From: Bacilli bacterium
GTDB lineage: Bacteria; Bacillota_I; Bacilli_A; RFN20; CAG-826
Direction of reading: 5' to 3'
NCBI GenBank assembly: GCA_045116995.1
Contig: JBGUMU010000031.1
Coordinates: 6,108 to 70,107 of the forward strand
DNA: 64,000 nucleotides
The notes under the pieces were generated by a model. The model was not told the origin of the DNA. It saw only the letters and a list, made by a program, of their open reading frames with translations, and did not search any database. Numbering within the stretch: position 1 is the first letter of the stretch; the number at the start of each line of letters is the position of its first letter. The translations under genes and the position numbers were made by a program. Of this stretch, positions 17,470-44,714 are shown piece by piece.

Positions 17470-17627
17470 TTTGAATCGTGGAAAACATTTAATTGGATAT
17501 TGTTGGTGATATTCTTTATTTAGTAGATTGTTACAAAACAATATTGGCATAACTCTTTTTATAACCTTTTTTAGGAGATATTTTTTTATTTACTTTTCAA
17601 ATTATGTAGTTATAATAAGCCCATAAA

Positions 17628-18715: not shown

Positions 18716-18716
18716 G

Positions 18717-19502
18717 ATGTTTAGTTTTCAAAAAATAGGTGACATTTTATCGAATAATGGAGAGTTGATTTTTGCTGGTATTCTATCAACACTTATTCTC
18801 TCCATATTTGGAACAAGTGTTGGTCTTGTTTTGGGTGTTTTCATTGCATATGGCAAGAATTGGAAAGCAAGACCAAACACCAATAAGTTTTTTATCTTTT
18901 GCATTGGCATTGTTAGAACATTTTGTGTTGGTTATTCAGTAATTTTAAGAGGCACACCGATGATGGTTCAAGCACTCATATTTAAATATGGTTGCGCCGC
19001 TCTTGGACTAAACTGGGATAATGTTAGATTCGTTGGGGCAATCAATAATGTTTTAAATGGCTGGTTTTTTGCTGGTCTTATTGTTATTACTTTAAACACT
19101 GCTGCTTATATGGGAGAAATTGTTCAATCTGGATTAAATGGTGTTGATAAAGGACAAATTGAAGGCGCTAGATCGTTGGGCATGAGGTCGTCTGAAACTT
19201 CTTTTTTTGTAATCTTACCACAGGCCATTAGAAACGCTTTGCCAACGATTGGCAATGAATTAATTGTAAACATCAAAGACTCGTCAGTATTAAATGTTAT
19301 CGCTACCACAGAACTTTATTATCGCATTGGTAAAATTTCTGTTAAAACATATGCGTATTTAGAAGGCTATGCCTTACTTGCCGCTATTTATCTAATTATG
19401 ACTTTACTTGCCGCCTCTATTCTAAAATTAATAGAAAAGAAATTAGATGGTCAAAAAATATCCTTGAATCCGTTTTCAAGATGGAAAAGGAGTTTGATAT
19501 GA
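18717..19502 (+). CDS. Amino-acid ABC transporter permease (His/Glu/Gln/Arg/opine family)
   Basis: EAA-like loop [38 protein letters not shown]. Confidence 0.85.
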
Positions 19503-20509
19503 AAGAAACACTGCTAGAGATTAAGAATCTTGCAAAGTTTTTTGATGCTACTAAGGTTTTGAAAGATATCAATCTAGTAGTAAATAAAGGTGATGTAATT
19601 GCTATTATAGGCCCTAGTGGTTCTGGTAAATCGACATTTTTGAGATGCTTAAATCTCCTTGAAGAACCTACAAGAGGCACGCTATCTTTTGAGGGCAAAA
19701 ATTATTTTTCTGTTCTTAAATGTAAAGATGATTTTGTTGACTATGAGAAATACATTATCGCCAAGAAGGAGTATTTTTCCAAAATTGTTGAAGCAGAGGA
19801 CAATCTTGCAATTTTCCAAAATTTAAGGATTGAAGGCGATAAATCAAAAGAAAACAAACTAAAAATTAAGGAATGCAAAAAAATATATAAAAACACTCTT
19901 AAGAACAAGCCAAATCCAATTAATTATTTTAACAAAAAAGCTTATGACGCTTTTATTTCGGAGCATCCAGTTTTATCGATTGGTGAAAACGGCAGAAATC
20001 ACCTAAGAACTAAAATGACTATGGTTTTCCAAAGTTTTAATTTGTTTAACAATATGGATGTTTTGAGAAATTGTACTATAGCTCAGGAAAGAATCTTGAA
20101 ACGTTCTTACGAAGACGCCAAGCAAAGAGCGTTTAGAGAATTGGCTGCGGTGAATATGCAAGATAGAATGAACTACCGTCCAAGATCACTCAGTGGAGGA
20201 CAAAAGCAAAGAGTTGCCATCGCTAGAGCATTATGTATGGATCCAGATATTATTTTGTTCGATGAACCAACAAGTGCACTAGATCCAGAAATGGCGGCAG
20301 AAGTTTTGGATGTGATGAAAAAATTAGCCAATGATGGTAGAACTATGATCGTAGTGACTCATGAAATGAATTTTGCTAGGAAGGTAGCTAATCGAGTGGT
20401 GTTTATGGAAGATGGATTTGTTGTAGAAAGTGGTCCTAGCGAAGATTTTTTTACTAATCCAAAGGAAGAAAGGACTAGAGCCTTTTTGAAAATCATGGGC
20501 GACGATTAA
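19481..20509 (+). CDS. Amino-acid ABC transporter ATP-binding protein carrying a roughly 100-aa insertion
   Basis: Walker [11 protein letters not shown]-loop MVFQSFNLF, signature [14 protein letters not shown], Walker [13 protein letters not shown]-loop VTHEM. The alternative start ATG 19499 overlaps the permease stop. Confidence 0.9.
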
Positions 20510-24900: not shown

Positions 24901-25026
24901 AAAAAAGGGTATTTTGATGCATTGGCTAATTATGACAACTACGATTTCACCGACGAAGATCCAAACGCTAAACCAGATAAGAAAAAAGCAATGTTTAAAA
25001 AACCATCTGCTGGTTTGGTAAAATAA
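21997..25026 (+). CDS. Defence-associated reverse transcriptase fused to a C-terminal nitrilase (C-N hydrolase) domain (UG/Abi class, DRT1-like)
   Basis: RT motifs LDITGYYYFVD (A), LPIGLNLSYLLANLYL (B) and YGRYVDDIIMV (C, YVDD at 22879-22890). Nitrilase triad context KIAIAVGSIN, ILFPESF (Glu), IRDK (Lys), LICYEATD (Cys). ATG 22018 is the more likely start than TTG 21997. Confidence 0.85.
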   Translation: MKITILFMFTNTPLIEKLKGSYRKFKSQVYFQNSLCYKKKEIALFEDKIDSFESAFKELEAAISSKDINYFKSLFERIDTFIVPKKINEKSNDPSLIENKNTIEKVEINEVNFHFDSPIEINILDVFYTIEVASFLNSKGILQNECWYANKFHRDLFDYDSEPNYKNLNIHTYYFSQYKKWKNDAIYCSEKLYNSKKDSSIISLDITGYYYFVDANIEKILFDCGIVLPDELTFLTKVMQELFNYYSALVCSYRIDLKGRVFLPIGLNLSYLLANLYLSSFDELANKICSHYGRYVDDIIMVIDNCNYTDLKQFAKDFPLIFKEDSNGDVVLTSFPSLRIKKDKFRIIRNYHDGSSEIFTKLKTEERTISEYNLFPSFSANVNSIINDIYEKQEYIKIRDFHKIQVDQSKIGKTINGLITATKGTKIKNKASFNRYSNNLLEALSPSAIVLTCMKMERLLLLFGYLENMRAFSKLKSKIRKTIKHIKFLPNDYTKTLYGDGRSKNKKTIEDRIKQSLQSLFENALCCFGALTGNVRIAQEVSPAVVQMYRYSNLFDLAPVRYPLINFTDLTKANLDYRIINFQVFVDATMQGYNSFQIQYSPYYLNLNDYLWAMETSELVTTGKYDIETLYNSYYEKIGTFFDEYKAELTFNIDQNNRYKLTTITINNNPLFFNISTNPNKIAIAVGSINLDMMDITYKEKKKRNPKTLLNVKDLGSEVKSAVIRLLNDSYYRDFKKNRDNLKKVNVQGPVEQENPENIENEKRPVDYILFPESFLPLSWIKLIDKFSRETLTTIVTGIRYVVYKGAVFNLVATEIPYFDQNMHKQSLIVIRDKNIMPLKERNILHDSGYIIKDKDVYDYVLFKKDNVNFAPLICYEATDIDARSLFKNKTNYIFTIAFNQDVNYFNSIGMSTSRDLFCFYIECNSSKFGSTAYAPYKNKYIPIASDKGNAREHMQIVFTNLNALNEYKKGYFDALANYDNYDFTDEDPNAKPDKKKAMFKKPSAGLVK

Positions 25027-25141: not shown

Positions 25142-27283
25142 TTGGTTCAAGGGAGACTTTTTAATCGTATGAAGAAGATAAATCTTTTTGTTACCACTCT
25201 TGTGGGTATTTTAGGTATCTCTCTTATTGGGTGTAGTCCTAAATTACCAACCACCCAATATGAGAAAGTTAAATTTGCCTTTAATGGTGTGGAGAAATCA
25301 TTCAAGAATAAGAAAACGTCTAAAGGGGCAATCTTGTTACCTAAAGCTAAACTAGGAGGATCTAATATATCTCATGGTTTAGATGTTATCTATAGCTACT
25401 TTAGAGATGACGATATTCAAGATAATTTCTTAGAAGAAGTAGAATACAATCAACCTCCTATGGTGCAGTTCCAATACCTAAAGAAAGTATTGGAAAAAGT
25501 TGGAAGTGGTTATGAATTTGGTAATAAATACTATGACACTATTAATGGTGAGATGTATTTTGATGTTGAAACAGGCTTTAAAAGAGAAGGTGAACAGTAT
25601 AAATACAACTACACCTTCACTTTAGGAATGGATATCAACATTGATGATAATGATTTAATCACCGCAGATATATCATTCGATATCAAACTTAATAAAGGTA
25701 ATGAAGAATACAATACCAAATGGTATGTCGCTATTGAGTTAGATTACGATATGGCTAATAACTCTCCTAATTATCAGATGACTATGGTCACTGAAAATGA
25801 TGAAAGAGAATTACCATTCTATGGTAGATATACATATGAATATGACTATGTAGAAGTCAAAGATAACTCCATCAAAGAATGGAGAAAGTTCTGTATGGAC
25901 AATGACCATAGATTAGTGAAAGACTCTACCCATACTAACTTCAATTCATATGTTGAAGAAGGATGTGAATATAAAGTAGATGCTTGCTCCTGGTATAAAG
26001 ATGGCGTCTTCCATAAGAATAAAAGAACCAGAGCACAAGGTGATGAGGCTAAAGCTGTAGGCGAAGCATTATTCACTGATTTAGGACTAAACGCTAATGA
26101 GATAGATGCTGATAAATTCTTTAATAAACAAGGCACACAAAATAGTGTTATCAAAACCTGTTATCAAGAGTTTAATAAAATCGCTAAAGAAGATATTATC
26201 TATGACCTAGTTTGTAAAGAAGAGGGCGATCACGGTGAGATAGAAAAACAACCAGCAGGTATTAGAGCGATGAATGGTGACTTTTCAGGATGGGGAGATA
26301 ACTATCAAGTTCCTGGTTCAGTAACCATTGGTCAATTATTTAATGGCTTTATAGATAACTATGGTGACAAGATAGTATTACATCTATGCTATGTTGATGA
26401 AGGTGGTGGCCTAATATCTGAAATCACTGATTTAAGAGCATTAAGATATTATGTTAAATCACAACGAGGTGAATACTATACTGAAGCGCATCTAGATGAT
26501 ACATTAGATGATGTGATACAAAGAGGTAGTTTCCAAGATAGAGAATTAACCATCTTATTCGTAGATGGTGATAATCTTAGTGGTGCTATGAATTTCTATT
26601 ACGCTGGTGATTTCCAAAATAATAACTATACTGCTCCTACATTCCCAGAAGTATTAAAGAACTTAGGAGTTCCTGAATATGAAGGTGAAAGATATACCAT
26701 TCTTGATAATAGTGTTTTAGATAAATCACCATATAAATTAGAAATAGGAAACACTGATGGTAATGAAGAAGCTAACTATAGAACTAAACTATTAAAGAAT
26801 GGTTTTGAAGTTACTGAAATATTTGGTTATAGAGAATATAAGAAACAAGTTAATACAAAGATAGTTGTTATTAGTATCAATAACGCTCAAATTGATAATG
26901 GTTATTTAACAATCACCATTAGTGTGGAAGATGCCCCAAATGTATTAATAGTTAACTCTATCGCTTTAGTGGGTTCATTTAATGACTGGCAAGTAGATAC
27001 TAATTGTGCTGAATTCACAAAAGTATCAGATACAATTTGGAGATTAAACGAACTACACTTATCCCCTGGTGAGAAATTCAAAATTGTTGTTAACCATGAA
27101 TGGGGTCAACGTGGTGGCTATGGCTATAACGATATTGTGCGTATCGATGAATATAGCAAACTATTAACTTCTGAAGGTGCAGAAGGCAATATCAAAGCCA
27201 ATGTAGCGTGTGTCCTTACTCTTGTTGCAGAAGTAAATGGTGAAAACGTTCTCTTCTTGCTTGAAGACGCACAGCAAGAATAA
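25142..27283 (+). CDS. Large surface lipoprotein with C-terminal CBM48/E-set-like glycan-binding module; function unknown
   Basis: Lipobox MKKINLFVTTLVGILGISLIGC (likely start ATG 25169). The C-terminus LVGSFNDWQ...W.L..L.PGEKFKIVVNHEWG resembles the AMPK-beta/CBM48-type fold motif. Confidence 0.55.
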   Translation: MVQGRLFNRMKKINLFVTTLVGILGISLIGCSPKLPTTQYEKVKFAFNGVEKSFKNKKTSKGAILLPKAKLGGSNISHGLDVIYSYFRDDDIQDNFLEEVEYNQPPMVQFQYLKKVLEKVGSGYEFGNKYYDTINGEMYFDVETGFKREGEQYKYNYTFTLGMDINIDDNDLITADISFDIKLNKGNEEYNTKWYVAIELDYDMANNSPNYQMTMVTENDERELPFYGRYTYEYDYVEVKDNSIKEWRKFCMDNDHRLVKDSTHTNFNSYVEEGCEYKVDACSWYKDGVFHKNKRTRAQGDEAKAVGEALFTDLGLNANEIDADKFFNKQGTQNSVIKTCYQEFNKIAKEDIIYDLVCKEEGDHGEIEKQPAGIRAMNGDFSGWGDNYQVPGSVTIGQLFNGFIDNYGDKIVLHLCYVDEGGGLISEITDLRALRYYVKSQRGEYYTEAHLDDTLDDVIQRGSFQDRELTILFVDGDNLSGAMNFYYAGDFQNNNYTAPTFPEVLKNLGVPEYEGERYTILDNSVLDKSPYKLEIGNTDGNEEANYRTKLLKNGFEVTEIFGYREYKKQVNTKIVVISINNAQIDNGYLTITISVEDAPNVLIVNSIALVGSFNDWQVDTNCAEFTKVSDTIWRLNELHLSPGEKFKIVVNHEWGQRGGYGYNDIVRIDEYSKLLTSEGAEGNIKANVACVLTLVAEVNGENVLFLLEDAQQE

Positions 27284-27309
27284 AAAACAATTACAACAAT
27301 ATGAATATG

Positions 27310-27336
27310 GCACCTCTTTTATCGGAGGTGCTTTTA
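27310..27336 (+). terminator. Intrinsic terminator
   Basis: GCACCTC-ttttatcg-GAGGTGC followed by TTTT. Confidence 0.65.
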
Positions 27337-27407
27337 TGTTATATAGAGTCAATGTTGGCCTATATCACAATTGAACGATATTTCTTAATAATATAAAATA
27401 TTAACAA

Positions 27408-30344
27408 ATGAAATGCCCGAAGTGTGGTTCTGAGTCCCTGACTTATTTAAAAAAGAAAGATAAGTATTTTTGTGATGATTGCGAATTTGTTTTTTCTGCA
27501 CCAACTGAAAAGAAGAAAATATTCTTAAGCTACGGGCATGATGCAAACGAAACTCTAGTCAACATGATTAAAGATAGACTAAATGATAAGTTCGATGTAT
27601 GGATTGATAAGTCAAGAATCAAAGGTGGCGATGACTGGAGAAGAATGATAACTGATGGGATAGTGGCTAGTGATGGTGTTATCGCTTTCCTAAGCAAACA
27701 TTCAACAAGAGAACCAGGAGTCTGCTTAGACGAAATAAGAATTGCACTCAACATCAAATACGGAAATGTTTTGACTGTTTTATTAGAACCGCCAGAAATG
27801 GTTAAAGTCCCTTCTACTATAGGATGGGTTCAATATCTCGATTTTTCGAATTGGAAAGAAGAATATAAAAAAGAATCTTTCCATTCATATTTTGATGCGA
27901 AGATGGAAGAACTGCTATCGGCCCTTAACAACGATTGCTTTGCAAATTTTAAGGGTGAAATAGAAGAACTACAAAGGTTGCTAACTCCTAATTTATCGCA
28001 ATCAAAGGAACAGATGCTCCTTAAGAGTGATTTTTATGGACGTGAATGGCTTTTGAACATAGTGGAAGAATGGCGAAAAGATATGTCCAGCAATGTTCTA
28101 TTTATATTTGGAGGGGCGGGTTTTGGAAAGAGCTCGTTTGTTTCACACCTCGCGCACTATAAGTATGAAGTCCTTGCCACAATGTACATAGAATGGGACA
28201 AAGAAAACCAAAGATCTCCAATTGAGTTTATTAAATCTCTTGCTTTCAAAATTGCAACAAAACTGCCTGATTATAGAAAACACCTAATTGATTTGCTGAA
28301 TAACAACTCTAATATATTTTTTAACAACCATGGGATAAGTGATTTGTTTGAGGAATTAATAGCAAAGCCACTTAATAACCTTATTGATGGTGAAAGAGAT
28401 AAGGCTGTGATTTTGATTGATGGTCTGGACGAAGCTTCTGATGAATGCACAAACGAAATTGCGTTTCTGTTAGCCAGAGAACTAACAAAATTACCAAAAT
28501 GGATAGGTATTATTTTGACATCTAGACCAGATGAATATGTGAGTGTCGCGTTTAAGCAATACCAGTCAATAAATCTCAATAATTATGTAGAAGAAAACAA
28601 TGGCGATATCCAATTATTTATCAATGAAAAACTATCTTCTTTCGAAATTGATAAAGAGACAAACGATTTACTACTTAAAAAGATAAATGGCAATTTCTTA
28701 TACGCTTCTTTATTAGTTAATTCATTAATAGATAAAACCTATTCTATTGATAATCTTGAAGCCCTTCCAAATGGACTCGAGTCCTTCTATTATCAAAACT
28801 TCCGCAGGTTCTTTCCAAATCAGAAGGATTTTGTTCAGACAAGAAACGTTTTAGAAGTTGTTACTGCATTATCTGATATTCCTAGAGAATTGATAATGAG
28901 AATCCTTGATATAGATTCTTACACACTAAAAGATATTCTCAAGAAGTGTTCCTCTTTCTTGACTCCTATTTACATTAGAGAGAGCGACTTCACAGTTATT
29001 TCTTATGATTTTTGCCATAAATCCATTTCTGACTTTTTATGTTCAGAAGACAATTGCGATTACTATGTTTCTAAGGCTGACGGTCTAAATAGAATACTAA
29101 ACTATTTCGTTAAAAACATATGCTTTGACAAACAGTATTTTGACAGCAAAGAGAAATACTTTTCCAACTATATTTGCGAACACATCTGCGATTTATTTAT
29201 CGACACAGGCAAATTTGATGAATTGGTTTGTTTCCTCACTCAAAATGAAGTACCACTGTTTCCATATTTTTTAGTCCTTGAGAAGCTCCCTTCTTCCGTC
29301 AATATTAGTCCTGCATTAGAATATCTTTGGAATCATAAGTTATTCATAGAATTCTTAAGAAAAATCCAAAGTGAAGGGAGAGTAAAAACTTTAAAATTCT
29401 TTTTCCGACAATTCCTACAAACAAAAGATATTGAAGAGTTCAACGCTGATGTATTTGAAATATACATAGACACAATCCACCTCAGCGGTGATTATGAACG
29501 AGCCGTTGGGGATTATGAAAAATATCTATCACGATTTGATTTTGAAAATGTGATGAAGGATAACAGATTATCTAGGTTCTATATTAGGATGCTTCATCAT
29601 AGTATGTTTTTTAAGGATTCAAAAGGTCTTCTAGAAAAAGCAAAAGCAACACTAAATTATATTTCACAAGAATCACCCAATTATTTAGAATTACTATTTT
29701 TGATCGGAGGAAATTTGGGCTGTCTGAACGGAGATTTTGTTAATTCTAAAGAATATTTACTTACTGGCTATGATTTTGCTCTTAGAAGCGGGCTTATCAA
29801 CGAAACAAAAAGATTTGTGAGAAAACTATGTGATGTTTATCTATACGAACATGATTTCGATGCCTCTTTAAATCTAATTAACAAACACTTCAGCGCTGAC
29901 AAAATTAAAACAAGGTATGATGTTTATTTACTTGGAGTGTTATCAGAAATCTATAGATTGAGTAAGAATTACCATCAATCCATCTATACCTTAGATTTGC
30001 TAAAAAAAGAATGTGATAATAGAGGGCTATTAGGGTGGAAAGCTCACGAAATGATAGGTAGAGCGCTAACTTTAATAAATGAAGAAACATACAAAACTGA
30101 TGAGATATTAGAATGCTTGAAAGGTGCTAGAGAACTATATAATAAATTGAATCACTATTGGGGCCTCGTGAATGAAGCGATTGTTAGAGAAATAGTCAAG
30201 TTAAAAGCCAATTGTGAAATAGATAATGATTTGAGTAAAACTCTCGAAATTGCCACCAAAATGAATTACAATTATGAAGTAGGCATTATTAAGGAATTAC
30301 TTAATAAACACATTGATGAAAACTACCATTTGTTTTATTTGTAA
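27408..30344 (+). CDS. Zn-ribbon - TIR - STAND (NACHT-like) NTPase - TPR-like repeat protein (bacterial TIR-NLR / Avs-bNACHT class)
   Basis: CPKCG..x..CDDC ribbon. TIR: IFLSYGHD...DVWIDK...GDDW...VIAFLS...GVCLDEI (Glu109 at 27732-27734). Walker A FGGAGFGKSS, Walker B VILIDGLDEA. Helical-repeat C-terminal half. Confidence 0.85.
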   Translation: MKCPKCGSESLTYLKKKDKYFCDDCEFVFSAPTEKKKIFLSYGHDANETLVNMIKDRLNDKFDVWIDKSRIKGGDDWRRMITDGIVASDGVIAFLSKHSTREPGVCLDEIRIALNIKYGNVLTVLLEPPEMVKVPSTIGWVQYLDFSNWKEEYKKESFHSYFDAKMEELLSALNNDCFANFKGEIEELQRLLTPNLSQSKEQMLLKSDFYGREWLLNIVEEWRKDMSSNVLFIFGGAGFGKSSFVSHLAHYKYEVLATMYIEWDKENQRSPIEFIKSLAFKIATKLPDYRKHLIDLLNNNSNIFFNNHGISDLFEELIAKPLNNLIDGERDKAVILIDGLDEASDECTNEIAFLLARELTKLPKWIGIILTSRPDEYVSVAFKQYQSINLNNYVEENNGDIQLFINEKLSSFEIDKETNDLLLKKINGNFLYASLLVNSLIDKTYSIDNLEALPNGLESFYYQNFRRFFPNQKDFVQTRNVLEVVTALSDIPRELIMRILDIDSYTLKDILKKCSSFLTPIYIRESDFTVISYDFCHKSISDFLCSEDNCDYYVSKADGLNRILNYFVKNICFDKQYFDSKEKYFSNYICEHICDLFIDTGKFDELVCFLTQNEVPLFPYFLVLEKLPSSVNISPALEYLWNHKLFIEFLRKIQSEGRVKTLKFFFRQFLQTKDIEEFNADVFEIYIDTIHLSGDYERAVGDYEKYLSRFDFENVMKDNRLSRFYIRMLHHSMFFKDSKGLLEKAKATLNYISQESPNYLELLFLIGGNLGCLNGDFVNSKEYLLTGYDFALRSGLINETKRFVRKLCDVYLYEHDFDASLNLINKHFSADKIKTRYDVYLLGVLSEIYRLSKNYHQSIYTLDLLKKECDNRGLLGWKAHEMIGRALTLINEETYKTDEILECLKGARELYNKLNHYWGLVNEAIVREIVKLKANCEIDNDLSKTLEIATKMNYNYEVGIIKELLNKHIDENYHLFYL

Positions 30345-30347
30345 AGT

Positions 30348-31232
30348 ATGAAAGATTTCGTATTAATTGACAGTTCAAAAATTGAAAAAGCTCTTTCTGA
30401 ATCAACTAGAGAATATCTTGTTGGTGATTTAAAAAAGCCTCAAAAATTGGATTTTATTAAAACAAGCGAATTAGAAGTTGGAATATCAAATTATCATCAT
30501 AGCAAAGTTGAACCAGCGCATACTCATACTGTTTGCAATGAATATCAATACATGCTTTCCGGTTATACGGAATATTTGAATATAGATAATGGTATTATCC
30601 ATAGTTTTAAGAAAGGCGACTTCTTCTTTATCCCGAGTGGTGTGAAATATGTCCAAAGGGTTAAAGAAAACACAAGAATTCTTTTTATCAAAGTACCATC
30701 GAAAAACGATAAAGTATTGCTTCAAGAAACCCCCGAAATCCTAAAGTTCATTTCGGAAAAAATAGAAAGTCATCGTATTGATTATTTCCATGATGATAAC
30801 GCTCCAAGGGCAAACTCTATTAGGCCCGCAACAGCGGTGGCTTTAGTAAAAGACAACAAGGTCCTAATGATTAGAAGAAAAGACAATGATAAATGGTCAC
30901 TTCCTGGAGGCACACTAGAGTTTGACGAGACAATGGAAGAATGCGCCATTCGTGAAATGAAAGAAGAAACAGGATTAGATGTTTTCGACCTCCGCTTTTT
31001 TAGACTATATAATGATCCAAAAACTGTTGTTCAATATTTAGATGGCGAAGTAAGAAGAGAGTTTACTGCCGTATATTTTGCTTCATTTAAGGAATCTAAT
31101 GTTTTATTGGATTCTGAATCTAAGGAGTTTTGCTGGGTTAATGTTGATGAATTATTAAATTTAACAATGGCCAATTCTCAACGAATTAGAATTAAAGATC
31201 TTATTGAGTATTTGAGAAATGATAAAGATTAG
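30348..31232 (+). CDS. Cupin - NUDIX hydrolase fusion protein
   Basis: Cupin motif HTHTVCNEYQYMLSG (HxHx4Ex6G) plus GDFFFIPSG. Perfect Nudix box GTLEFDETMEECAIREMKEETGL (GX5EX7REUXEEXGU). Starts 3 nt after the TIR-STAND stop. Confidence 0.85.
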   Translation: MKDFVLIDSSKIEKALSESTREYLVGDLKKPQKLDFIKTSELEVGISNYHHSKVEPAHTHTVCNEYQYMLSGYTEYLNIDNGIIHSFKKGDFFFIPSGVKYVQRVKENTRILFIKVPSKNDKVLLQETPEILKFISEKIESHRIDYFHDDNAPRANSIRPATAVALVKDNKVLMIRRKDNDKWSLPGGTLEFDETMEECAIREMKEETGLDVFDLRFFRLYNDPKTVVQYLDGEVRREFTAVYFASFKESNVLLDSESKEFCWVNVDELLNLTMANSQRIRIKDLIEYLRNDKD

Positions 31233-31638
31233 TGAAGACAGATTAAAACATTCTCTTTCTGTTGCGCGCTTAATGGAAAGAAGGGCTAGAGAAAAAGGCT
31301 GGGATGACAACGTGTGCCGTGAAATGTTCATTTTGGGATATTTGCACGATATCGGTTATGAATATTCAGAAAAACAAGAAGAACATCCTCATATCGGCGG
31401 TCTTTTGATGAAAGAAAGCGGCTATAAGTATTGGAAAGAGATATATTATCACGGTGCTATTGATTGTGAGTATCATTCAGAAGAACTAGAACTATTAAAT
31501 ATATGTGACATGCTCATTAATTCAAAGGGTGAACTTGTGACTCCAGAAGAAAGATTAGCAGACATTAAAAATAGATACGGCATTGATTCAATACAATACA
31601 AAGATGCTTTGGTATTGATAAAACAATTAAATATCTAA
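31219..31638 (+). CDS. Small HD-domain phosphohydrolase (YqeK/HDIG-like minimal HD)
   Basis: H11 ... LHDIGY (H43 D44) ... HPHIGG ... H78 ... D97 spacing of the HD superfamily. Overlaps the NUDIX gene by 14 nt. Confidence 0.7.
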   Translation: MIKISEDRLKHSLSVARLMERRAREKGWDDNVCREMFILGYLHDIGYEYSEKQEEHPHIGGLLMKESGYKYWKEIYYHGAIDCEYHSEELELLNICDMLINSKGELVTPEERLADIKNRYGIDSIQYKDALVLIKQLNI

Positions 31639-31655
31639 AAGGTCCTAGTGAATCG

Positions 31656-32465
31656 TTGTTTATGTCAAAAGAAGTAGTCTATATTTTCATATCTCACTCT
31701 CACTATGACGTTGATAAAGTAAGACCAATTAGGAATTATTTGGAATCAATTGGAGCTGAGCCAATTCTTTTCTTTTTGAAAAGTAAAACCGACGCCGATG
31801 AAATAGAACAACTAATTAAAGACGAAATAGATGCTAGGGTTTGGTTTATTTATTGCAGATCATCAAATGCCGAAAGGTCGACTTGGGTCAAAAAAGAGCG
31901 AGAATACGTCAGACTCAAAGGAAAACGCAACATTACAATAGATATAGATTCATGTCTTGATTCAAATGGCAATTTAACATTAGAAACTAAGCAAAAACTA
32001 AATACCGTAGTGGGCAATTTCCGCTCACTTCAAAGACTCTATATTTCCTATTCTCATTTAGATTTTGAAGTTGCTAGAATGATTCAAGAACAACTGAGTA
32101 TATATGGCATAGACTCCTATTGTGACTTTAAAGATTTGGTTTCATCTAACTTTGAAAAAACAATCATTAGAGCAATTCAACAATCGCGGTTTTATCTCAT
32201 CCTTTTATCGGTAAGATCAATTAATTCTCTATGGGTTCGAAAAGAGTTTGAAACCGCCAAAGCTTTCAACAAAGAAATAATACCAGTGATTATGTACAGC
32301 AGTGATAGTCAACGAGAAATGATAATGAACAATGAATGGGCTTATCGTCACTTGGGATATATGCACTGCATCACGTTTGATATATCAAATAGCGAAATGA
32401 TTAATGAATCTACTAATCAACTTGTCAACGAATTGATAAGAATTGTTTTTGATGAGAATCAATGA
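31656..32465 (+). CDS. Tandem TIR-domain protein (two TIR_2-like modules)
   Basis: Module 1: VYIFISHSHYD...ILFFLK...VWFIYCRSSNAERSTWVKKEREY. Module 2: LYISYSHLDFEVA...FYLILLSVRSINSLWVRKEFETA. The likely start is ATG 31662. Confidence 0.75.
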   Translation: MFMSKEVVYIFISHSHYDVDKVRPIRNYLESIGAEPILFFLKSKTDADEIEQLIKDEIDARVWFIYCRSSNAERSTWVKKEREYVRLKGKRNITIDIDSCLDSNGNLTLETKQKLNTVVGNFRSLQRLYISYSHLDFEVARMIQEQLSIYGIDSYCDFKDLVSSNFEKTIIRAIQQSRFYLILLSVRSINSLWVRKEFETAKAFNKEIIPVIMYSSDSQREMIMNNEWAYRHLGYMHCITFDISNSEMINESTNQLVNELIRIVFDENQ

Positions 32466-32618
32466 TAAATGTGATTCTCTTAAACAGCTTCTTGGTCCGT
32501 CAATAGATTGGATATTACATAAAAAAGATATAGAATGATAATAAATCGAAACTTACGACATTTTTATCTAGTTATTTTTGTGTACCAAAACAGTCTTGAT
32601 CAAGGCAGGAAGAAAACA

Positions 32619-33443
32619 ATGAAAACAATTCTTAAAAATATTTTTAAATTATTAGCTATTGCTACTATCGTTGTACAAATTGTTTTTCTATTCTTGCCTA
32701 TTGACCAAGTTTGGCAATTAGTTATATCAATATTCCCTTTCGTTTTTGAAATTGCTGCAGGCATTTTAGAAATAGATACTGTAAAGGCAGATACCGGCAA
32801 ATCAAAGAGTGGCAAAAGAGTCATTCCTCTATCTTCTTTAATTATGTCTCTAATTATGCTTTGTCTAGCCGCTGTTATTGTGGATGTATTAATCGGCACC
32901 GTTTTAATAGTTATTTCATTTGTTGTTTCATTTATCTTGTACAACAGTTATCGCAAAAGAGGATTACAAACTAAGATTAGCCCTTTGCAACGTTTCTTTA
33001 TTATACTTGCTCTCATCATTCTTCCTGTTGCCCAATATATTAAAATTTTATTAACAGTTGTAGAACAAAATAGAGGACCTGCTTCTATTATGTTTGGCAT
33101 ACAATTTGGACTATGCTTAATTGCCACGATTATTATCATTATTTGCTTAAGAAAAAAGAGCAATCCAATGAGATATTTCTTAGTATTCTTCGCTAATGGC
33201 GTTGGAACATTCCTAACATATTTTTTAAATGGTAACGGTGTCTTTGGACTAATTAATATTACTCTTTCATTTGCTGGCCCAGCTTTGTTTGCTTCTTTAG
33301 CTGCTTTAGGGACTATTGTTATCCTATACGTTGTAGGCAGATTACCAATAAATATTGTCGAAAAGTCTGACTTCTCAGAGATAGAAAATTTCGATGACGG
33401 TAATAACAATAATAATCCTTATCAAAACACATACGTTAAATAG
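32619..33443 (+). CDS. Polytopic membrane protein (about 8 TM helices), unknown function
   Basis: ATG 32619 is preceded by AGGAAG. Hydrophobic helices run throughout, with an Asn-rich hydrophilic tail. Co-directional with flanking genes. The ORF track extends it to 32535. Confidence 0.6.
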   Translation: MKTILKNIFKLLAIATIVVQIVFLFLPIDQVWQLVISIFPFVFEIAAGILEIDTVKADTGKSKSGKRVIPLSSLIMSLIMLCLAAVIVDVLIGTVLIVISFVVSFILYNSYRKRGLQTKISPLQRFFIILALIILPVAQYIKILLTVVEQNRGPASIMFGIQFGLCLIATIIIIICLRKKSNPMRYFLVFFANGVGTFLTYFLNGNGVFGLINITLSFAGPALFASLAALGTIVILYVVGRLPINIVEKSDFSEIENFDDGNNNNNPYQNTYVK

Positions 33444-33508
33444 ATATTCTATTGATATACTTATGTAAATAAGCTACTCTAAAATCAAATAGGAGACATA
33501 TTGCAATT

Positions 33509-33946
33509 ATGAGTGATTATTCTTTTCGTGATTTTTTAAATCATACGATAAATCTAAGCCCAGCGGACAAGGTTAAAATCGCAAGCGAAGCTTTGAAAAT
33601 TTACATCGATTACTTGAAATCTGATGGAATTAATGATGAAAAAATAGGTGACTCTATTTTGTGGATGACAAAATTATTTGTTTCCGCTGATGTGAGACTT
33701 GCTAAGGATGAATACGATTTCTTTAGAGCGGTCACGGGTATAGATGTCGATGCAAAGAATTTCTATGAAATTACTAACGGTGGTGCTGATCCTGAATTCA
33801 TTGAAAAAATGTTAGGCTTTATCAAAAGCATACCCGAAAAACCACGCGAAGCCGCTGTTACATACGGCATGATGGTTATGGCGTGCGACGAAAACATTGA
33901 TTTCAGTGAATCTGATTTAATCAAACGTCTTTTAGAAATCTTATAA
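33509..33946 (+). CDS. Small helical protein, TerB-like (tentative); paralog of the next gene
   Basis: KLFVSADVRLAKDEYDFF, TNGGADPEF, ACDENIDFSESDLIKRLL. The two AD-x-x-x-x-E-like segments resemble the TerB/DjlA_N pattern. RBS AGGAGA. Confidence 0.4.
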   Translation: MSDYSFRDFLNHTINLSPADKVKIASEALKIYIDYLKSDGINDEKIGDSILWMTKLFVSADVRLAKDEYDFFRAVTGIDVDAKNFYEITNGGADPEFIEKMLGFIKSIPEKPREAAVTYGMMVMACDENIDFSESDLIKRLLEIL

Positions 33947-33954
33947 AGTAATTT

Positions 33955-34395
33955 ATGACACAAGACCTTAGAGATACATTACAAGGGCTATTGGATACAG
34001 AAGACGAATTAAAAAGAAGTTATGGCAAAAAAGCCATTGATGAACTAATAGCTAATCTTAAGTTTAAGGGCCATAGAATCGACTCAATCAATGCCTTTAT
34101 TACTGACTTAGTTAAGTTACTCGTGTCCGCCGATATGACATGCCACGGAAGAGAATATGATTTTGTTATGTCTACTACTCCACTAAAAATGAACGAAAGA
34201 GAATTCTTTAAGACAACTAATGGTGGTGCAGATCCAAATTTTAAATATCATATATATCAATTCATCTCCAATTTAGATAAAGATTCTTTTGTGCGAGTAG
34301 CAAGATTTGCGTCTGCATTTTTTGCTTATGATGATGAAATAACAACAGATGAACTAATAGTGTTGGATGAAATATTAAGAGTTAATGAAGGATAG
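33955..34395 (+). CDS. Small helical protein, TerB-like (tentative); paralog of the previous gene
   Basis: KLLVSADMTCHGREYDFV, TNGGADPNF, AYDDEITTDELIVLDEIL. Same spacing of shared motifs as 33509-33946. Confidence 0.4.
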   Translation: MTQDLRDTLQGLLDTEDELKRSYGKKAIDELIANLKFKGHRIDSINAFITDLVKLLVSADMTCHGREYDFVMSTTPLKMNEREFFKTTNGGADPNFKYHIYQFISNLDKDSFVRVARFASAFFAYDDEITTDELIVLDEILRVNEG

Positions 34396-35355
34396 GTGAA
34401 CAACATGGCCAACAAAATATTAAAACACTATGATGCCTTTTATAATATGGTGCTCCTCACCACATTATTATCTAATGTCGCTGACGAGAAGTTTGATGAA
34501 GACGCAAAAAAGATTATCGAAGTCATTGGTCAAGCTTATGAATTAGAAGAAGGAATCATCAATGAATGTGAAAGGCTTATTACGGAAGAACTAGTCATTA
34601 TTCCGCGCAATAAGGATCGTATGAAATATCTCGAGAAGCAGGGCAATGAAGCAAAGAGTAATTCTTTGAATGCTATGCTATCAATTAAATGCGATGTTTT
34701 ATTTGCTATTAGTGAGCTTAACAGAAGAATTGGCTCATCCTTAGATGGTGATTGGTTTGACTATAGTAACTACCACACCTACAACCCAGAATTAAGATAT
34801 TCGCAAATTAGAAAAGCTGCGGTCACTGGCGATCTCATTGTTAATAAGATGAATGCAATGATGAATTATATCGGTCTAGGCTCCAATAAAGATGAGGCTT
34901 TTGCCATTTTATCTTTCAGACAATGTGCGGTATGGGGAGATATGTTCTCTGTTAATATGCTCAAACATATCTATCGCAGTAAAGATATTAAACAATATGA
35001 GATATATAAAGATTTAGCGACCCTAGATAAATATCTAGATAATGGTGTAACTGTCTTACCAGATAATGTCGCTACTTCTATTAAACCAGAAACCAAAGAA
35101 TTATACGCTTATATTTCATCAATCAAACAAGATATTATTCTACCTCTAGGTAAGAATAGAATCGATTACTCATTCGTGGAAGTCATTCTTTTGAAAGATC
35201 TTTCGTATCGTCAAAAGATGTTCTATATCAACAATTACTCCAATCCTAATGTCACTAACGAATGGAAAGATATTACCAACGCCAGTGCGTGTAAGGATGC
35301 ACAGATTGGTTTTAAAGTAAGGAGAGAAAACAATGATAAAGAAACCGTTTTATGA
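34396..35355 (+). CDS. Hypothetical protein with Sel1/TPR-like repeat region
   Basis: IRKAAVTGDLIVNKMNAMMNYIGLGSNKDEAFAILSFRQCAVWGDMFSVNMLKHIY fits the Sel1 repeat pattern (kAA..Gd..A...L...Y..G.G...d..eA). Start is GTG 34396 or ATG 34405. Confidence 0.45.
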   Translation: MNNMANKILKHYDAFYNMVLLTTLLSNVADEKFDEDAKKIIEVIGQAYELEEGIINECERLITEELVIIPRNKDRMKYLEKQGNEAKSNSLNAMLSIKCDVLFAISELNRRIGSSLDGDWFDYSNYHTYNPELRYSQIRKAAVTGDLIVNKMNAMMNYIGLGSNKDEAFAILSFRQCAVWGDMFSVNMLKHIYRSKDIKQYEIYKDLATLDKYLDNGVTVLPDNVATSIKPETKELYAYISSIKQDIILPLGKNRIDYSFVEVILLKDLSYRQKMFYINNYSNPNVTNEWKDITNASACKDAQIGFKVRRENNDKETVL

Positions 35356-37288
35356 TAAAACTCGCGATGATTATATCGCTTGTAAAAAAGAAAACTCCTC
35401 TCTTTATAGTTACAAAGATTTTAAAGATAAAAAACTTAAAGTCTATTTCTACGATGAACTATACAAGACTGAAGCCCAAGGCTATCCATTTAGTAGTGAC
35501 TTCGTTGATGAAAATGGCAATGCTTATGACTTTGATAGTTATGAAGAATTAAGTGATGAAGAAAAGGCAAAATGTCGCTTAAGATATTTCTATTTACCTT
35601 TCTATCACGAAATGTATGTTGGTACCACCGGTAGTGGTAAAACAACAGGCTGTTTAGAACCTCAAATTAGGGCTATTGGTTCACAAAAGAATAAACCTAA
35701 TATCTTTGTGACTGACCCTAAAGGTGAACTATTTGATCATCACGCTACATTCTTAAAGAAGAAAGGTTACAACGTCTTTATTCTTAATTTCAAAGATCCA
35801 TCTATCTCCAATTCATGGAATCCATTTGATGAATTATATGATAAGCAAGTATCTTTGATTGACCTCGGTAAAGACTATCAGCTATGCCACGGTTTAGTTC
35901 CTGATGGTGTCAGAATGTTTGATGACAAGACTAAATATCAAAGAACATATTACATGCTTGATGGTATTGCTTTCGCAACTTTGAGTTCGTTAAGCCAATA
36001 TGTAGAAAATCAAAGGTTTACCATTAAGTCAGAAGTCTCATCTTTGATTAACCAAATATCAAGCACAATGATTCCACCTATTCCAGGGGATAAAGATCCT
36101 ATCTGGAGAGATGGTTCTAGAGATTTATTAAGTGGCATCATCTCCGGCTTATTAGAAGAAGCTGTTAAACCTAATACAACATTCACTAAAAAGATGATGA
36201 CATTAAAAACAGTTAATGATGTCTATCTTAAGATTAATGATGGTCAAAACAACAGTCATGAATTTGATATAGTCCATGAGTTCTTTGAAGAAAAATCAAC
36301 AGAAACACTTAGTAAAGTTACAACAGTATTGGATTCCGCTGATAAGACTAGAGCGTCTTTCTTAAGTTGCTTTAGAGCAGCGGTCGCTGATTGGATGCAT
36401 GGACACATACTTAAATTAACGGCCGAAACCACAATTGATTTAGATGACTCTAAAAATCCATTCGCTGTATTCTTTGTCACTAGAGATTATGAAAGCAGTG
36501 ATGATTTAGTAGCGTCCTTATTCATTAACTGGGTCTACACACAGGTATTAAAGAAAGTTGAAAGAATTAGAAATAATAATCCATCCGCTAAAGTAAGAGA
36601 TACACACTTCTTATTAGATGAATTTGCTAATATTCCACAAATCCATGACTTTAGAAGAAAGATTGCAACTGCAAGAAGTAGAAACATTTGGTTCCATATC
36701 ATCATCCAAAACTACTCACAGTTGAATGCTATTTATGGTGATGAAGTTGCTTCAACTATTTGGGATAACTGTAATTCACAAGTATTCCTAGGATGTCAAT
36801 CTAGGGAAACAAAAGAAAAGTTCTCTAAAGAATGCGGCATGATGACCGTTAATGGAGAAGATGCGGGTGGCAGTGAAGTTGAAACCATACCAGTAGTTCG
36901 TATCTCCGACTTAGACAAGATTAAGCCAGGCACCATGTATATTAAGCGCATATACACTAATGTCATTAAAGGCGGTTATATTAGAAGCTATCAAGCTACA
37001 AGATTCTTTGAAGATATGTATGGCACTGATCCATTACATACTCTTGTTCCATTTAATAATACCGATATTAATGAGCCATCAAGAACATTCTATGAAATGT
37101 GCCCACGATGGTATAAAAAGCCTAAAAAGCCCGCCCCAGTAGTGGAACGATTTGAAGAAGAAGACGAAGAGGAAGATGACTCTAGTGGAGATGCTGTTGA
37201 TCAATTCTTCCAGAAATTGAAAGAAGAACAGCAAAGAGAAAATCCTGAATTATATGCTCCACTTAAGAAGAAAGGAGATAAGAGATAA
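35333..37288 (+). CDS. Soluble VirD4/TraG-family (type IV coupling-protein-like, FtsK/HerA-superfamily) ATPase with acidic C-terminal tail
   Basis: Walker A VGTTGSGKTTG, FVTDPKGEL, NSWNPFD, Walker B HFLLDEFANIPQI, RSRNIWFHIIIQNYSQL. No N-terminal TM helices. Tail EEEDEEEDDSSGD. RBS AAGGAGAG. Confidence 0.8.
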   Translation: MIKKPFYDKTRDDYIACKKENSSLYSYKDFKDKKLKVYFYDELYKTEAQGYPFSSDFVDENGNAYDFDSYEELSDEEKAKCRLRYFYLPFYHEMYVGTTGSGKTTGCLEPQIRAIGSQKNKPNIFVTDPKGELFDHHATFLKKKGYNVFILNFKDPSISNSWNPFDELYDKQVSLIDLGKDYQLCHGLVPDGVRMFDDKTKYQRTYYMLDGIAFATLSSLSQYVENQRFTIKSEVSSLINQISSTMIPPIPGDKDPIWRDGSRDLLSGIISGLLEEAVKPNTTFTKKMMTLKTVNDVYLKINDGQNNSHEFDIVHEFFEEKSTETLSKVTTVLDSADKTRASFLSCFRAAVADWMHGHILKLTAETTIDLDDSKNPFAVFFVTRDYESSDDLVASLFINWVYTQVLKKVERIRNNNPSAKVRDTHFLLDEFANIPQIHDFRRKIATARSRNIWFHIIIQNYSQLNAIYGDEVASTIWDNCNSQVFLGCQSRETKEKFSKECGMMTVNGEDAGGSEVETIPVVRISDLDKIKPGTMYIKRIYTNVIKGGYIRSYQATRFFEDMYGTDPLHTLVPFNNTDINEPSRTFYEMCPRWYKKPKKPAPVVERFEEEDEEEDDSSGDAVDQFFQKLKEEQQRENPELYAPLKKKGDKR

Positions 37289-37824
37289 TGGAAGAAAAGA
37301 AATTATCCGAAAAGCTTATTGAAAACGGCATCTTTGTTATCACAAGCAATATTAACGAAGAAACCACTCATAGTTTGATATTCTCGCTTTTAGATTTCAG
37401 TGCATCTAATCCTGAAAAAGAGATTAAACTATACATCTCTTCAGGCAGTGTTGACTATCTTAATGTTTTTGCGATTTATGATGTTGTTAAATCATTACCT
37501 AATCCCGTATCCACTTATTCAATAGGTGGTGTATCTGATATGTCACTAGTCTTCCCATGCTTAGGAAACAAAGGAAAAAGATATGCCTTAGAAAACACAT
37601 TATTCTATTTCTCTGAAGTAGTGGGCGTTCTTGGCGAAGGCCAACAAACTGATATTGAAATATTAGCGAAAGATACAATGCGTACAAGAATTGCTTTTGA
37701 ATCAATATTAGCGGAAGCAACAGGAAAGAAAGTCGAAGATATTCATAAAGATTTAGTTAATAGTATTAAATTGACTGCAAAAGAGGCTAAAGAATATGGA
37801 TTGATTGATGAGGTGATGAGATAA
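37288..37824 (+). CDS. ClpP-fold protein lacking the catalytic triad (ClpR-like pseudo-protease)
   Basis: Collinear with ClpP (NPEKEIKLYISSGS..IYD....P.VSTYSIGG...KGKRYAL.N...AKEAKEYGLIDEV). The Ser, His and Asp positions read D84 (GGVSDMS), F108 (LFYFSE) and S (LVNSIKLT). Confidence 0.8.
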   Translation: MEEKKLSEKLIENGIFVITSNINEETTHSLIFSLLDFSASNPEKEIKLYISSGSVDYLNVFAIYDVVKSLPNPVSTYSIGGVSDMSLVFPCLGNKGKRYALENTLFYFSEVVGVLGEGQQTDIEILAKDTMRTRIAFESILAEATGKKVEDIHKDLVNSIKLTAKEAKEYGLIDEVMR

Positions 37825-37825
37825 T

Positions 37826-38347
37826 ATGGCACTTATTAAGAATTCTAGAATCGTTTCACTAAATGGTGAAGTAAACGAAATATCAGCATTAGAAGTCATT
37901 GTTCAAATGCTAGATCTTGACGCTAAAGATAATAAAGAACCAATCCACCTCTACATTAATAGTCCAGGTGGAAGCATCATTCATGGTTTAGCTATCTATG
38001 ACACAATCAACAACATTGAAGCCCCAGTATATACATATTGCTATGGTCTTGCAGCTTCTATGGGCGCGTTTCTATTATGCTGTGGTCAAAAAGGTCACAG
38101 ATACGCTCTTCCTAATTCAAGAATATTAATTCACCAACCTTTGATTTCCGGGCAAGCAAGGCTCGCTACCGAATCGAAGATTAGAGAACAAGCAGATGAT
38201 ATGAAAAAGATGAGAACAAAATTAGAAAGTATCATTGCAGAGCAATGCGATAAGAGTCTTGAAACAGTTCATAAAGACTGTGAGAGAGATAACTGGATGA
38301 GCGCTAAAGAAGCCAAAGAATACGGCCTCATAGATCAGGTATTATAA
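37826..38347 (+). CDS. ClpP-family serine protease, catalytic triad intact, N-terminal axial-loop region absent
   Basis: HLYINSPGGS, GLAASMGAFLL (Ser78), ILIHQP (His103), ERDNWMSAKEAKEYGLID (Asp155). It starts about 19 residues later than mature E. coli ClpP in my by-eye alignment. Confidence 0.85.
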   Translation: MALIKNSRIVSLNGEVNEISALEVIVQMLDLDAKDNKEPIHLYINSPGGSIIHGLAIYDTINNIEAPVYTYCYGLAASMGAFLLCCGQKGHRYALPNSRILIHQPLISGQARLATESKIREQADDMKKMRTKLESIIAEQCDKSLETVHKDCERDNWMSAKEAKEYGLIDQVL

Positions 38348-44713: not shown

Positions 44714-44714
44714 T

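Follow-up and report, generated by a model that had tools for sequence, protein, structure and literature searches.

This work concerns four consecutive genes in a 64,000-nucleotide (nt) stretch of DNA, referred to throughout as the window, that covers positions 6,108 to 70,107 of contig JBGUMU010000031.1 (assembly GCA_045116995.1) from a Bacilli bacterium and has a G+C content of ~33%. The genes encode, in order, a TIR-STAND protein, a fusion of a cupin with a NUDIX domain, a minimal HD phosphohydrolase and a protein built of two TIR modules. A first-pass annotation made from the sequence alone had singled out the last three, coupled to the TIR-STAND, as a candidate undescribed module, and the four open reading frames proved to be members of conserved gene families, not chance reading frames, all on the plus strand at the positions given here in window numbering.

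27309-27332 (+), terminator-like hairpin with a 9-bp stem (five G-C pairs) and a T-run; upstream boundary of the module
27408-30344 (+), TIR-STAND protein, 978 residues: zinc ribbon, TIR_2, NPHP3_N-type NTPase, long helical and TPR-like C-terminus
27519-27869 (+), TIR domain of the STAND protein, residues 38-154 (Pfam TIR_2, 1.5e-18); the Glu in GVCLDE is invariant in homologs of class A, defined below
28032-28550 (+), STAND P-loop NTPase module, residues ~209-381 (Pfam NPHP3_N, 1.6e-19)
29325-30341 (+), TPR-like C-terminal domain, residues 640-978, ending ...MNYNYEV...NYHLFYL
30348-31232 (+), cupin-NUDIX fusion, 294 residues, beginning 3 nt past the STAND stop codon
30474-30719 (+), cupin barrel, residues ~43-124
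30825-31184 (+), NUDIX domain, residues 160-279
30909-30977 (+), Nudix box, residues 188-210
31219-31638 (+), minimal HD phosphohydrolase, 139 residues, overlapping the cupin-NUDIX gene by 14 nt
31656-32465 (+), tandem-TIR protein, 269 residues from the TTG at 31656 (267 from the ATG at 31662)

The spacing across the four genes is 3 nt, −14 nt and ~23 nt, the 14-nt overlap being as first reported. Promoter-like hexamers lie at 27364-27399, 3' of the hairpin, and from the start of the TIR-STAND gene the plus strand holds no terminator-like site up to 32807, where the first one occurs, so that the earlier statement that none precedes 32465 holds. Because of this tight spacing and the lack of an internal plus-strand terminator-like site, co-transcription of the four genes is plausible; the arrangement is consistent with it but does not prove it. 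No riboswitch or tRNA clues were found near the module. The tandem-TIR protein probably starts at the ATG at 31662, since its homologs begin MSKE.

The first gene encodes what is probably a sensor/transducer carrying a TIR output domain. Its membership of the STAND/NLR-like proteins is seen in an NTPase with Walker A and B motifs, an N-terminal TIR domain and C-terminal repeats, for which TPR matches are found in homologs. The zinc ribbon (CPxC..CxDC), the GVCLDE motif, Walker A (GxxGxGKS) and Walker B (DGLDE) are kept among TIR-STAND homologs, and the NTPase module also matches AAA_16, NACHT and nSTAND1, each below cut-off. The PDB holds no sequence relative of the protein, and PADLOC returned only TIR-domain-level matches, with its Avs and TIR-NLR models unmatched.

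The second gene fuses two domains whose motifs, as the first-pass annotation had recognised, are both present in one chain, and these motifs are family-invariant. The NUDIX domain is well above threshold (Pfam PF00293, 2.5e-22, 79.8 bits against a cut-off of 21.1), and its Nudix box is complete, G188-x5-E194-x7-R202-E-M-K-E-E-T-G-L210, with R202, E203, E206 and E207 invariant in the family. The N-terminal half scores 23.6 bits against Cupin_2, below the Pfam cut-off of 27.2; its motif 1, H58-x-H60-x4-E65-x6-G72, is invariant or nearly so in the family, a beta-barrel is present in the AlphaFold model (predicted local distance difference test score, pLDDT, 92.1), and the family profile of this half matches Cupin_2 proteins in the PDB at 1e-3. 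In motif 2 the conserved His was not found in the family, and Y101 and Q103 are conserved there. As judged from these motifs, the N-terminal half is a divergent cupin that keeps three of the four ligands found in classical cupins. The family comprises 325 matches, the best 120 of which are all ~297 residues long with ~50% identity.

How widely does this arrangement occur? A scan of one genome per species yielded 53 loci with a full-length or split cupin-NUDIX, designated here by L and a number; these loci were searched with the window proteins and their neighbours were compared with Pfam. They span Bacillota, Actinomycetota, Bacteroidota, Spirochaetota, Fusobacteriota, Kiritimatiellia, Calditrichota, Acidobacteriota, Verrucomicrobiota and Pseudomonadota, a patchy spread typical of horizontally moving genes. 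A STAND/TPR partner lies directly upstream in ~33 of the 53 and a CorA-like partner in ~12, and 48 loci could be placed in four classes by partner architecture (HTH, helix-turn-helix):

Class A, 11 loci: partner zinc ribbon-TIR-NTPase-TPR, ~990 residues, ~34% identical over its full length to the window protein; cupin-NUDIX fused; HD usually absent
Class B, 14 loci: partner P-loop plus TPR, ~820 residues, without TIR or other effector domain; cupin-NUDIX fused; HD usually present
Class C, 14 loci, Actinomycetes: ~440-residue partner with a CorA-like membrane C-terminus (4.7e-9); cupin-NUDIX fused; HD usually present
Class D, 9 loci, Acidobacteria and relatives: partner HTH-nSTAND1-TPR, ~975 residues (nSTAND1, 3.9e-116); cupin and NUDIX split into two adjacent genes; HD absent

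Full-length homologs of the window TIR-STAND, at ~34% identity, stand directly upstream of cupin-NUDIX in L001, L002, L004-L008, L023, L028 and L029. The partner NTPases are of three types (NPHP3_N-type, NB-ARC-like and nSTAND1), and PADLOC gave no match for the class B partners. The class C partner joins an uncharacterised soluble domain of ~330 residues to its CorA-like transmembrane C-terminus, and no STAND protein was seen in class C loci L010, L012, L015, L016, L019, L021, L031, L036, L041 and L048. In nearly all loci the module genes abut or overlap. Genes farther upstream are unrelated between loci, so the unit starts at the partner gene; a conserved upstream gene was considered as the missing effector of the TIR-less STANDs and rejected, the upstream genes being mutually unrelated. 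The TIR-STAND, cupin-NUDIX and HD genes form a recurrent module found in many phyla, and the cupin-NUDIX enzyme is its invariant component, almost always translationally coupled to the upstream partner. The first-pass annotation had asked whether its genes co-occur outside this genome: the TIR-STAND with cupin-NUDIX, with or without HD, does so in several phyla, whereas the tandem TIR joins them in the window lineage only.

In nine Acidobacteria and related loci the cupin and the NUDIX domain are encoded by separate, adjacent genes, which on sequence grounds is a natural fission of the fusion. Among L044-L053 (Acidobacteria, Verrucomicrobiota; for example L045 at 10001-10917) the split halves measure ~142 and ~160 residues and lie behind an HTH-nSTAND1-TPR gene.

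What the STAND partners have in common lies at their C-terminal end. The last ~330 residues are the only region homologous across classes A, B and D, and they finish in a kept tail, ...[MQ]Y.Y......L-x-[FY]-L-COOH (MNYNYEV...NYHLFYL in the window). This TPR domain is rare: an exhaustive search of 1.84 billion representative proteins returned 116 proteins that carry it, in which it is C-terminal in the full-length-sized matches and whose lengths peak at ~810-830 and ~985-1015 residues, the sizes of class B and of classes A and D. Clades of the cupin-NUDIX tree match partner class, and pairwise distances between cupin-NUDIX proteins correlate with those between the TPR domains with a Mantel r of 0.90, a value reached in 0 of 2000 permutations. 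The two have thus long been co-inherited while the NTPase and effector parts were swapped. TPR_MalT-like matches were also obtained in partner proteins; the MalT sensor domain binds a small-molecule inducer, and by this analogy the matches would fit a ligand-binding STAND sensor domain.

One could suppose instead that there is no functional unit here at all, and that independent housekeeping or defence genes have become neighbours by chance in a crowded island. The demonstrable independence of the tandem TIR, the existence of stand-alone HD proteins in the family and the few cupin-NUDIX genes without a partner would all suit such an account, yet the same gene order with start/stop coupling recurs in nine groups (Bacillota, Actinomycetota, Bacteroidota, Spirochaetota, Fusobacteriota, Kiritimatiellia, Calditrichota, Acidobacteriota and Pseudomonadota) despite unrelated flanks, and both the Mantel correlation and the fusion-fission relationship of cupin and NUDIX stand against it. 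We regard this explanation as highly improbable overall, and for the STAND and cupin-NUDIX pair chance adjacency is strongly disfavoured.

Two loci depart from the common plan. The 415-residue partner in L022 was considered as a new class and rejected, the gene upstream of cupin-NUDIX (8742-9989) being a fragment of BrxC from a BREX system joined in frame to the final ~100 residues of the TPR domain. In L020 (1-800, 3139-4472) a truncated NUDIX-HD pair is followed by a second such pair. Judging by their sequences, both are probably rearranged loci, L022 being rearranged or decayed.

The HD protein is recognised by Pfam PF01966 (23.5 bits against a cut-off of 22), and its metal ligands H11, H43-D44, H56, H78 and D97 are invariant in the family. 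Its model is all-helical (pLDDT 95.7), with HD proteins as the top fold matches at a probability of 0.98 but E values of at least 0.24; the weak matches to YqeK-like, HD-GYP and CCA-enzyme HD domains do not discriminate between them, and the PDB holds no sequence match. The HD gene directly follows cupin-NUDIX in ~25 of the 53 loci, with a strong dependence on class (2/11 in A, 10/14 in B, ~11/14 in C and 0/9 in D; A against B and C together, 2/11 vs 21/28, p = 0.003). It is therefore a frequent member, mostly where the partner lacks a TIR domain, and the window lineage, in which HD and TIR-STAND occur together, is atypical. The NUDIX-linked HD proteins form clades that track partner class. 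A large stand-alone clade of the same family, in housekeeping-like neighbourhoods (CutA1-HD-HAD near SecA; behind a UvrD/AddA-type helicase near MreB, GAPDH and PGK), indicates that the HD is a recruited member of a broader family. The proposal of HD as a module partner thus stands for about half of the loci and is qualified by this housekeeping-like clade.

The tandem-TIR gene behaves differently. The protein matches TIR_2 in two stretches (2e-25) and also ThsB-type profiles (Pfam ThsB_TIR, 6.6e-10; PADLOC ThsB, 3.7e-13), and the two Glu contexts noted at the outset correspond to invariant residues, E81 (WVKKE) and E197 (WVRKE); as far as motifs can tell, the catalytic residues of all four genes are intact. 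Near-identical copies (98%) and a contig with an 86%-identical cupin-NUDIX carry all four genes and the same downstream genes as the window, and it is only in this lineage (L117, L118, L123) that the tandem TIR is linked to the module. At a locus whose cupin-NUDIX is 64% identical, STAND, cupin-NUDIX and HD are followed by an opposite-strand gene, with no tandem TIR. Conversely, tandem-TIR genes of 76% and 61% identity are found, in defence islands elsewhere that contain no NUDIX, HD or STAND gene, next to AAA_15/21, Fic, RloB and Abi_2 or to AbiEii and an AEP-TOTE helicase, and ~20 informative loci revealed no conserved neighbour of the family. The four genes are therefore not the single conserved unit that had been envisaged; the tandem TIR is a facultative, separately mobile satellite gene, evolutionarily independent of the core. 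A pairing of the tandem TIR with the downstream membrane protein, in the manner of type II Thoeris, was rejected, the transmembrane gene being absent in L123 and not kept beside other family members. Distant tandem-TIR relatives (P0169, P0174, P0185, P0191) carry an N-terminal CxxC...CxxC zinc ribbon like that of the TIR-STAND.

Other TIR genes do accompany the module. A TIR profile search detected extra TIR-domain genes at 7 of 11 class A loci and at 0 of 37 loci of classes B, C and D (Fisher p = 4.5e-6), and the window and L123 also carry one. These proteins range from 246 to 2045 residues in varied architectures and have only the TIR domain in common, at 25-37% identity, which marks them as independent acquisitions; the TIR-NLR model PDLC03015 was matched only by the unrelated extra TIR protein in L001. 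The pattern suggests that free TIR proteins associate with TIR-STAND modules as facultative and interchangeable additions, and raises the possibility of a functional tie between TIR-STAND and free TIR-only proteins. The TIR coupling first proposed thus holds up only in a weakened form, through non-orthologous TIR genes, and not for this tandem TIR as a core partner.

These data bear directly on the circuit proposed in the first-pass annotation. In plants the Nudix hydrolase NUDT7 restrains TIR-NLR immunity, and by analogy the TIR proteins would make ADP-ribose (ADPR)-derived signals from nicotinamide adenine dinucleotide (NAD+) that cupin-NUDIX and HD process or quench; in a variant, NUDIX and HD would destroy ADPR and so block the rebuilding of NAD+ by the phage. 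Four co-oriented, tightly spaced genes in the window lineage, preserved TIR catalytic Glu residues, the specific clustering of extra TIR genes with TIR-STAND and cupin-NUDIX loci and a Macro-domain gene near some NUDIX-only relatives all speak for it, as does the precedent of CAAD-type CRISPR defence, in which a Nudix enzyme processes an effector's nucleotide product by hydrolysing ITP (PMC13276650). Against this, 37 of the 48 classified loci have no TIR domain within the fetched flanks, which implies that TIR products are not the family's general substrate, and cupin-NUDIX follows the TPR domain or a CorA-like protein instead; HD is depleted beside TIR-STANDs (2/11 vs 21/28), the tandem TIR at 61-76% identity occurs without NUDIX or HD, and neither NCBIfam nor Foldseek gave an ADPR-specific signature. 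As a general function this circuit is not upheld, and we consider it unlikely.

What, then, could the cupin-NUDIX enzyme do for so many different partners? The module at 27408-31638 is probably one version of a widespread, horizontally spread family of defences against phages or other mobile elements, and the reading that we favour, while giving it somewhat less than an even chance, is a candidate defence module built on an NLR-like protein, with cupin-NUDIX working at the sensor side and TIR and/or HD providing the output. A sensor-side role is favoured because the enzyme is invariant, tracks the TPR end or the CorA-like partner and keeps all its catalytic residues. There are precedents for a NUDIX enzyme that governs a regulator beside it or serves immunity, namely Pif of pSAM2 and the Mdp-Nud-HTH cluster of actinomycete conjugative elements, the HTH-DUF5919 neighbours of NUDIX-only relatives, Nudix with CAAD and an integron NUDIX cassette, each described below or above. 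The defence context speaks for the model as well, with DRT, TIR, SIR2 and DUF4062 genes in the window and, qualitatively, genes for BREX, Cas type I-C, type IIG restriction-modification, PLD-helicase and PbeA beside homologous loci. The hydrolytic activity of cupin-NUDIX would regulate how much of a nucleotide-derived small molecule is available to gate the partner, and physical docking of the enzyme to the TPR domain or to the L-x-[FY]-L tail may occur as well. In the uninfected cell the enzyme would hold the STAND protein off; on infection the ligand balance would shift, the STAND protein would oligomerise and its TIR domains would consume NAD+. In other versions of the module the HD enzyme or the CorA-like channel would be the toxic output. 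The tandem TIR and the unrelated extra TIR proteins may co-assemble with the TIR domains of the STAND protein or act as a separate NADase. More specifically, and with less confidence, cupin-NUDIX could be a dedicated enzymatic co-receptor that makes or removes a nucleotide-derived, possibly phage-induced, molecule read by the TPR domain or the CorA-like protein's cytosolic domain.

Several findings weigh against this sensor-side model. Co-inheritance is no proof of physical or ligand coupling, and a jointly selected operon would give the same correlation; cupin-NUDIX lacks a partner in L034, L039, L050 and L052; the small HD family includes the stand-alone clade described above; and the defence-island association is qualitative. 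Moreover, fold and sequence searches yielded only generic NUDIX, cupin and HD matches and no substrate. For the NUDIX domain no NCBIfam equivalog reached its cut-off (best 42 bits vs 103), Foldseek placed CDP-Chase, NudI, Ap4A hydrolase, NudC and RppH at similar scores with no two-domain template, and a PDB sequence search gave generic matches; for the cupin half, the profile matched only generic Cupin_2 proteins and bicupins. A near-invariant Pro occurs 14 residues past the Nudix box in the family, which, going by subfamily signatures, may hint at ADPR-type enzymes, a hint on which we do not rely.

An alternative hypothesis is that the roles are reversed, such that the TPR domain, like Avs proteins, would sense a phage protein, and cupin-NUDIX and HD would be nucleotide-destroying effectors switched on by the STAND protein, depleting (d)NTPs, NAD(H) or ADPR or removing RNA 5' caps, with the fused TIR as an extra effector. 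The catalytic residues of NUDIX and HD are all invariant, the STANDs of classes B and D have no effector domain of their own, so that a neighbouring gene must supply the output, and the NUDIX half bears a generic likeness to RppH, NudC and Dcp2. It also matches the PADLOC single-gene candidate PDC-S07 (1.7e-14; profile positions 11-130 of 135, residues 163-287), a domain-level resemblance to a candidate that has neither cupin domain nor STAND partner. A further point in favour of this alternative, and one that tells against the sensor-side model, is that a NUDIX gene on its own, carried as an integron cassette, makes its host resistant to phage (bioRxiv 10.64898/2026.03.17.712381), and so does a stand-alone HD integron cassette. 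On the other side, the co-inherited part is the C-terminal sensor-type domain and not the N-terminus, the usual site of STAND effectors. Domains that sense phage proteins usually diversify, whereas the TPR domain is conserved across phyla, and the Actinomycetes partner is a CorA-like membrane protein, a typical effector rather than a sensor. For these reasons we hold the effector role to be possible but rather improbable.

The closest NUDIX-only relatives point in yet another direction, which also counts against the sensor-side model: they belong to conjugative-element biology and not to phage defence. Proteins 40-47% identical to the window NUDIX half are found in actinomycete integrative conjugative elements (AICEs), where an HTH(XRE)-DUF5919 gene is directly upstream in 19 of 27 Nocardia loci and integrase, replication-initiator and FtsK-like genes form the flanks; a NUDIX-GntR-HD arrangement occurs on a Thermoactinomyces plasmid. 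In L055 (7804-8370, minus strand), and also in L056 (Nocardia), a Macro-domain gene (1.7e-19) lies near the pair of HTH-DUF5919 and NUDIX-only genes, a possible link to ADPR metabolism. The Pif NUDIX hydrolase of pSAM2 confers a conjugal immunity that depends on the Nudix motif, and a phosphohydrolase-Nudix-HTH (Mdp-Nud-HTH) cluster is conserved in several actinomycete conjugative elements (PMC2440964). One hypothesis is accordingly that the module regulates or excludes conjugative transfer, like Pif, or stabilises its carrier element, and a VirD4-like coupling protein encoded 5 kb downstream of the window module would suit it. The TIR-STAND architecture and the CorA-like partners are, by contrast, typical of abortive-infection immunity, homologous loci have BREX, CRISPR-Cas and restriction genes as neighbours and for the most part show no conjugation genes, and searches of 72,556 plasmid records and of the phage collection turned up no full-length cupin-NUDIX. 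A role in conjugation appears doubtful on this balance.

If the sensor-side model is correct, the module would be a small-molecule-gated bacterial NLR with swappable outputs (a fused TIR, HD or a channel) that recruits free TIR proteins as amplifiers. To our knowledge, the bacterial NLR-like (STAND) immune proteins described so far work as single proteins with direct recognition of phage proteins, and indirect or small-molecule sensing has been established in certain NLRs of plants and animals but in none from bacteria; a sensor-side domain conserved across phyla together with a permanent metabolite-type enzyme points to such sensing. The natural variants, with TIR fused to the STAND protein, a separate HD, a CorA-like partner or split cupin and NUDIX genes, lend themselves to dissection of the mechanism.

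The surroundings of the module agree with the defence-island location that had been proposed. Capsule/polysaccharide genes occupy positions 1-21,810 together with those of an ABC transporter, which has a lysine riboswitch, and library scans including PADLOC place a defence island from 21,997 to ~50,800, in which a DRT gene (UG5-nitrilase reverse transcriptase) lies upstream of the module and TIR, SIR2 and DUF4062 genes downstream. Its content is as follows, after the riboswitch:

17626-17789 (+), lysine riboswitch (Rfam RF00168, 87.7 bits), upstream of the amino-acid ABC transporter operon 17849-20509
21997-25026 (+), reverse transcriptase-nitrilase fusion, 1009 residues (PADLOC DRT RT_UG5-nitrilase model, 8.9e-115), a known defence-associated reverse transcriptase
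25142-27283, lipoprotein-like gene directly after it, 713 residues, without family match
33509-38347 (+), two paralogous genes of 145 and 146 residues, a 319-residue gene, a VirD4-like coupling protein (CD1115 family, 1.4e-72) and two adjoining ClpP-like protease genes
42449-45563 (+), DUF4062 protein, 754 residues (N-terminal DUF4062, 7.8e-11), then a 282-residue gene without family match
45698-47002 (+), TIR-methyltransferase fusion, 434 residues (N-terminal TIR, 3e-18; S-adenosylmethionine-dependent methyltransferase, mad2-like in PADLOC)
48342-50785 (+), PDC-S31-like gene (4.9e-21), then a 474-residue SIR2_2 protein

The segment 33509-38347 may belong to a conjugative element or be what is left of one, and its backbone is also found behind the tandem TIR in L117, L118 and L123. 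A phage or plasmid origin was considered and rejected, as plasmids gave no match at the DNA level and neither phages nor plasmids gave a full-length protein match. According to two preprints of 2026 (NIR / Swarozyc), DUF4062 is an NADase domain that resembles TIR and acts in antiphage defence. The TIR-methyltransferase fusion at 45698-47002 is an uncommon TIR architecture. The SIR2_2 gene (49361-50785), 17 kb from the tandem TIR, has a weak ThsA-like match (3.3e-6), and with the PDC-S31-like gene it may form another NAD-targeting defence pair. L119, whose tandem TIR is 76% identical, has a class I/II aminotransferase gene (10898-12046) comparable to one at 47048-48205 in the window island, which hints that the two are the same chromosomal defence hotspot with different cargo.

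How does the module compare with systems already described? As the first-pass annotation had supposed, no name for a composition of STAND and cupin-NUDIX was found in PADLOC (2023), NCBIfam or Pfam, where matches are at the level of domains, nor was a description found in the open literature; subscription journals may hold one. The module would be an NLR-like STAND defence that has an obligate enzymatic partner at its sensor side. Avs/AVAST, bNACHT and TIR-NLR proteins resemble the window protein in their N-terminal effector (here TIR), a STAND NTPase with Walker A and B motifs, C-terminal TPR-type repeats, a location in defence islands and a likely output of NAD+ depletion on oligomerisation. 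The known Avs are single genes that bind phage proteins, whereas the window-type TPR domain, which is kept from phylum to phylum and occurs with three NTPase clades, has in cupin-NUDIX an obligate partner enzyme encoded by its own gene; the obligate neighbour argues against a single-gene function of the STAND protein. The tandem TIR is like Thoeris in matching ThsB-type profiles, with a catalytic Glu in both modules, and differs in holding two TIR modules in one 267-residue chain and in having no ThsA gene (SIR2/SLOG or Macro-TM), either within 27300-35400 or conserved beside the tandem-TIR family.

With the Pif and Mdp-Nud-HTH(XRE) clusters of AICEs (pSAM2, pMEA100, pSE211) the module shares a NUDIX domain, which there has an immunity role that needs the Nudix motif and adjoins a regulator, to which certain elements add a metal-dependent phosphohydrolase. 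The NUDIX-only proteins found in such contexts differ in lacking a cupin and in having an HTH-DUF5919 or GntR regulator as partner, and their larger HD phosphohydrolase is another one, not detected with the window HD. No HTH regulator adjoins the window NUDIX gene, whose partner is the STAND protein. The finding would also connect the long-unexplained conjugal immunity of pSAM2 Pif with modern defence-system biology. Ring nucleases, NrN with CorA in type III CRISPR and Nudix with CAAD are alike in placing a nucleotide hydrolase beside an immune effector, and NrN with CorA is matched further by the CorA-like membrane partner of class C; these nucleotide-signalling defences differ in that a signal synthase (cyclase, Cas10 or CD-NTase) is absent in most module loci, and in the module it is the hydrolase, not the effector, that is invariant. 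Finally, plant TIR-NLR proteins with NUDT7 offer a conceptual parallel, with no homology beyond domain superfamilies, from which the bacterial enzyme differs in being fused to a cupin, in being genetically linked to its NLR-like gene and in serving TIR-less partners as well.

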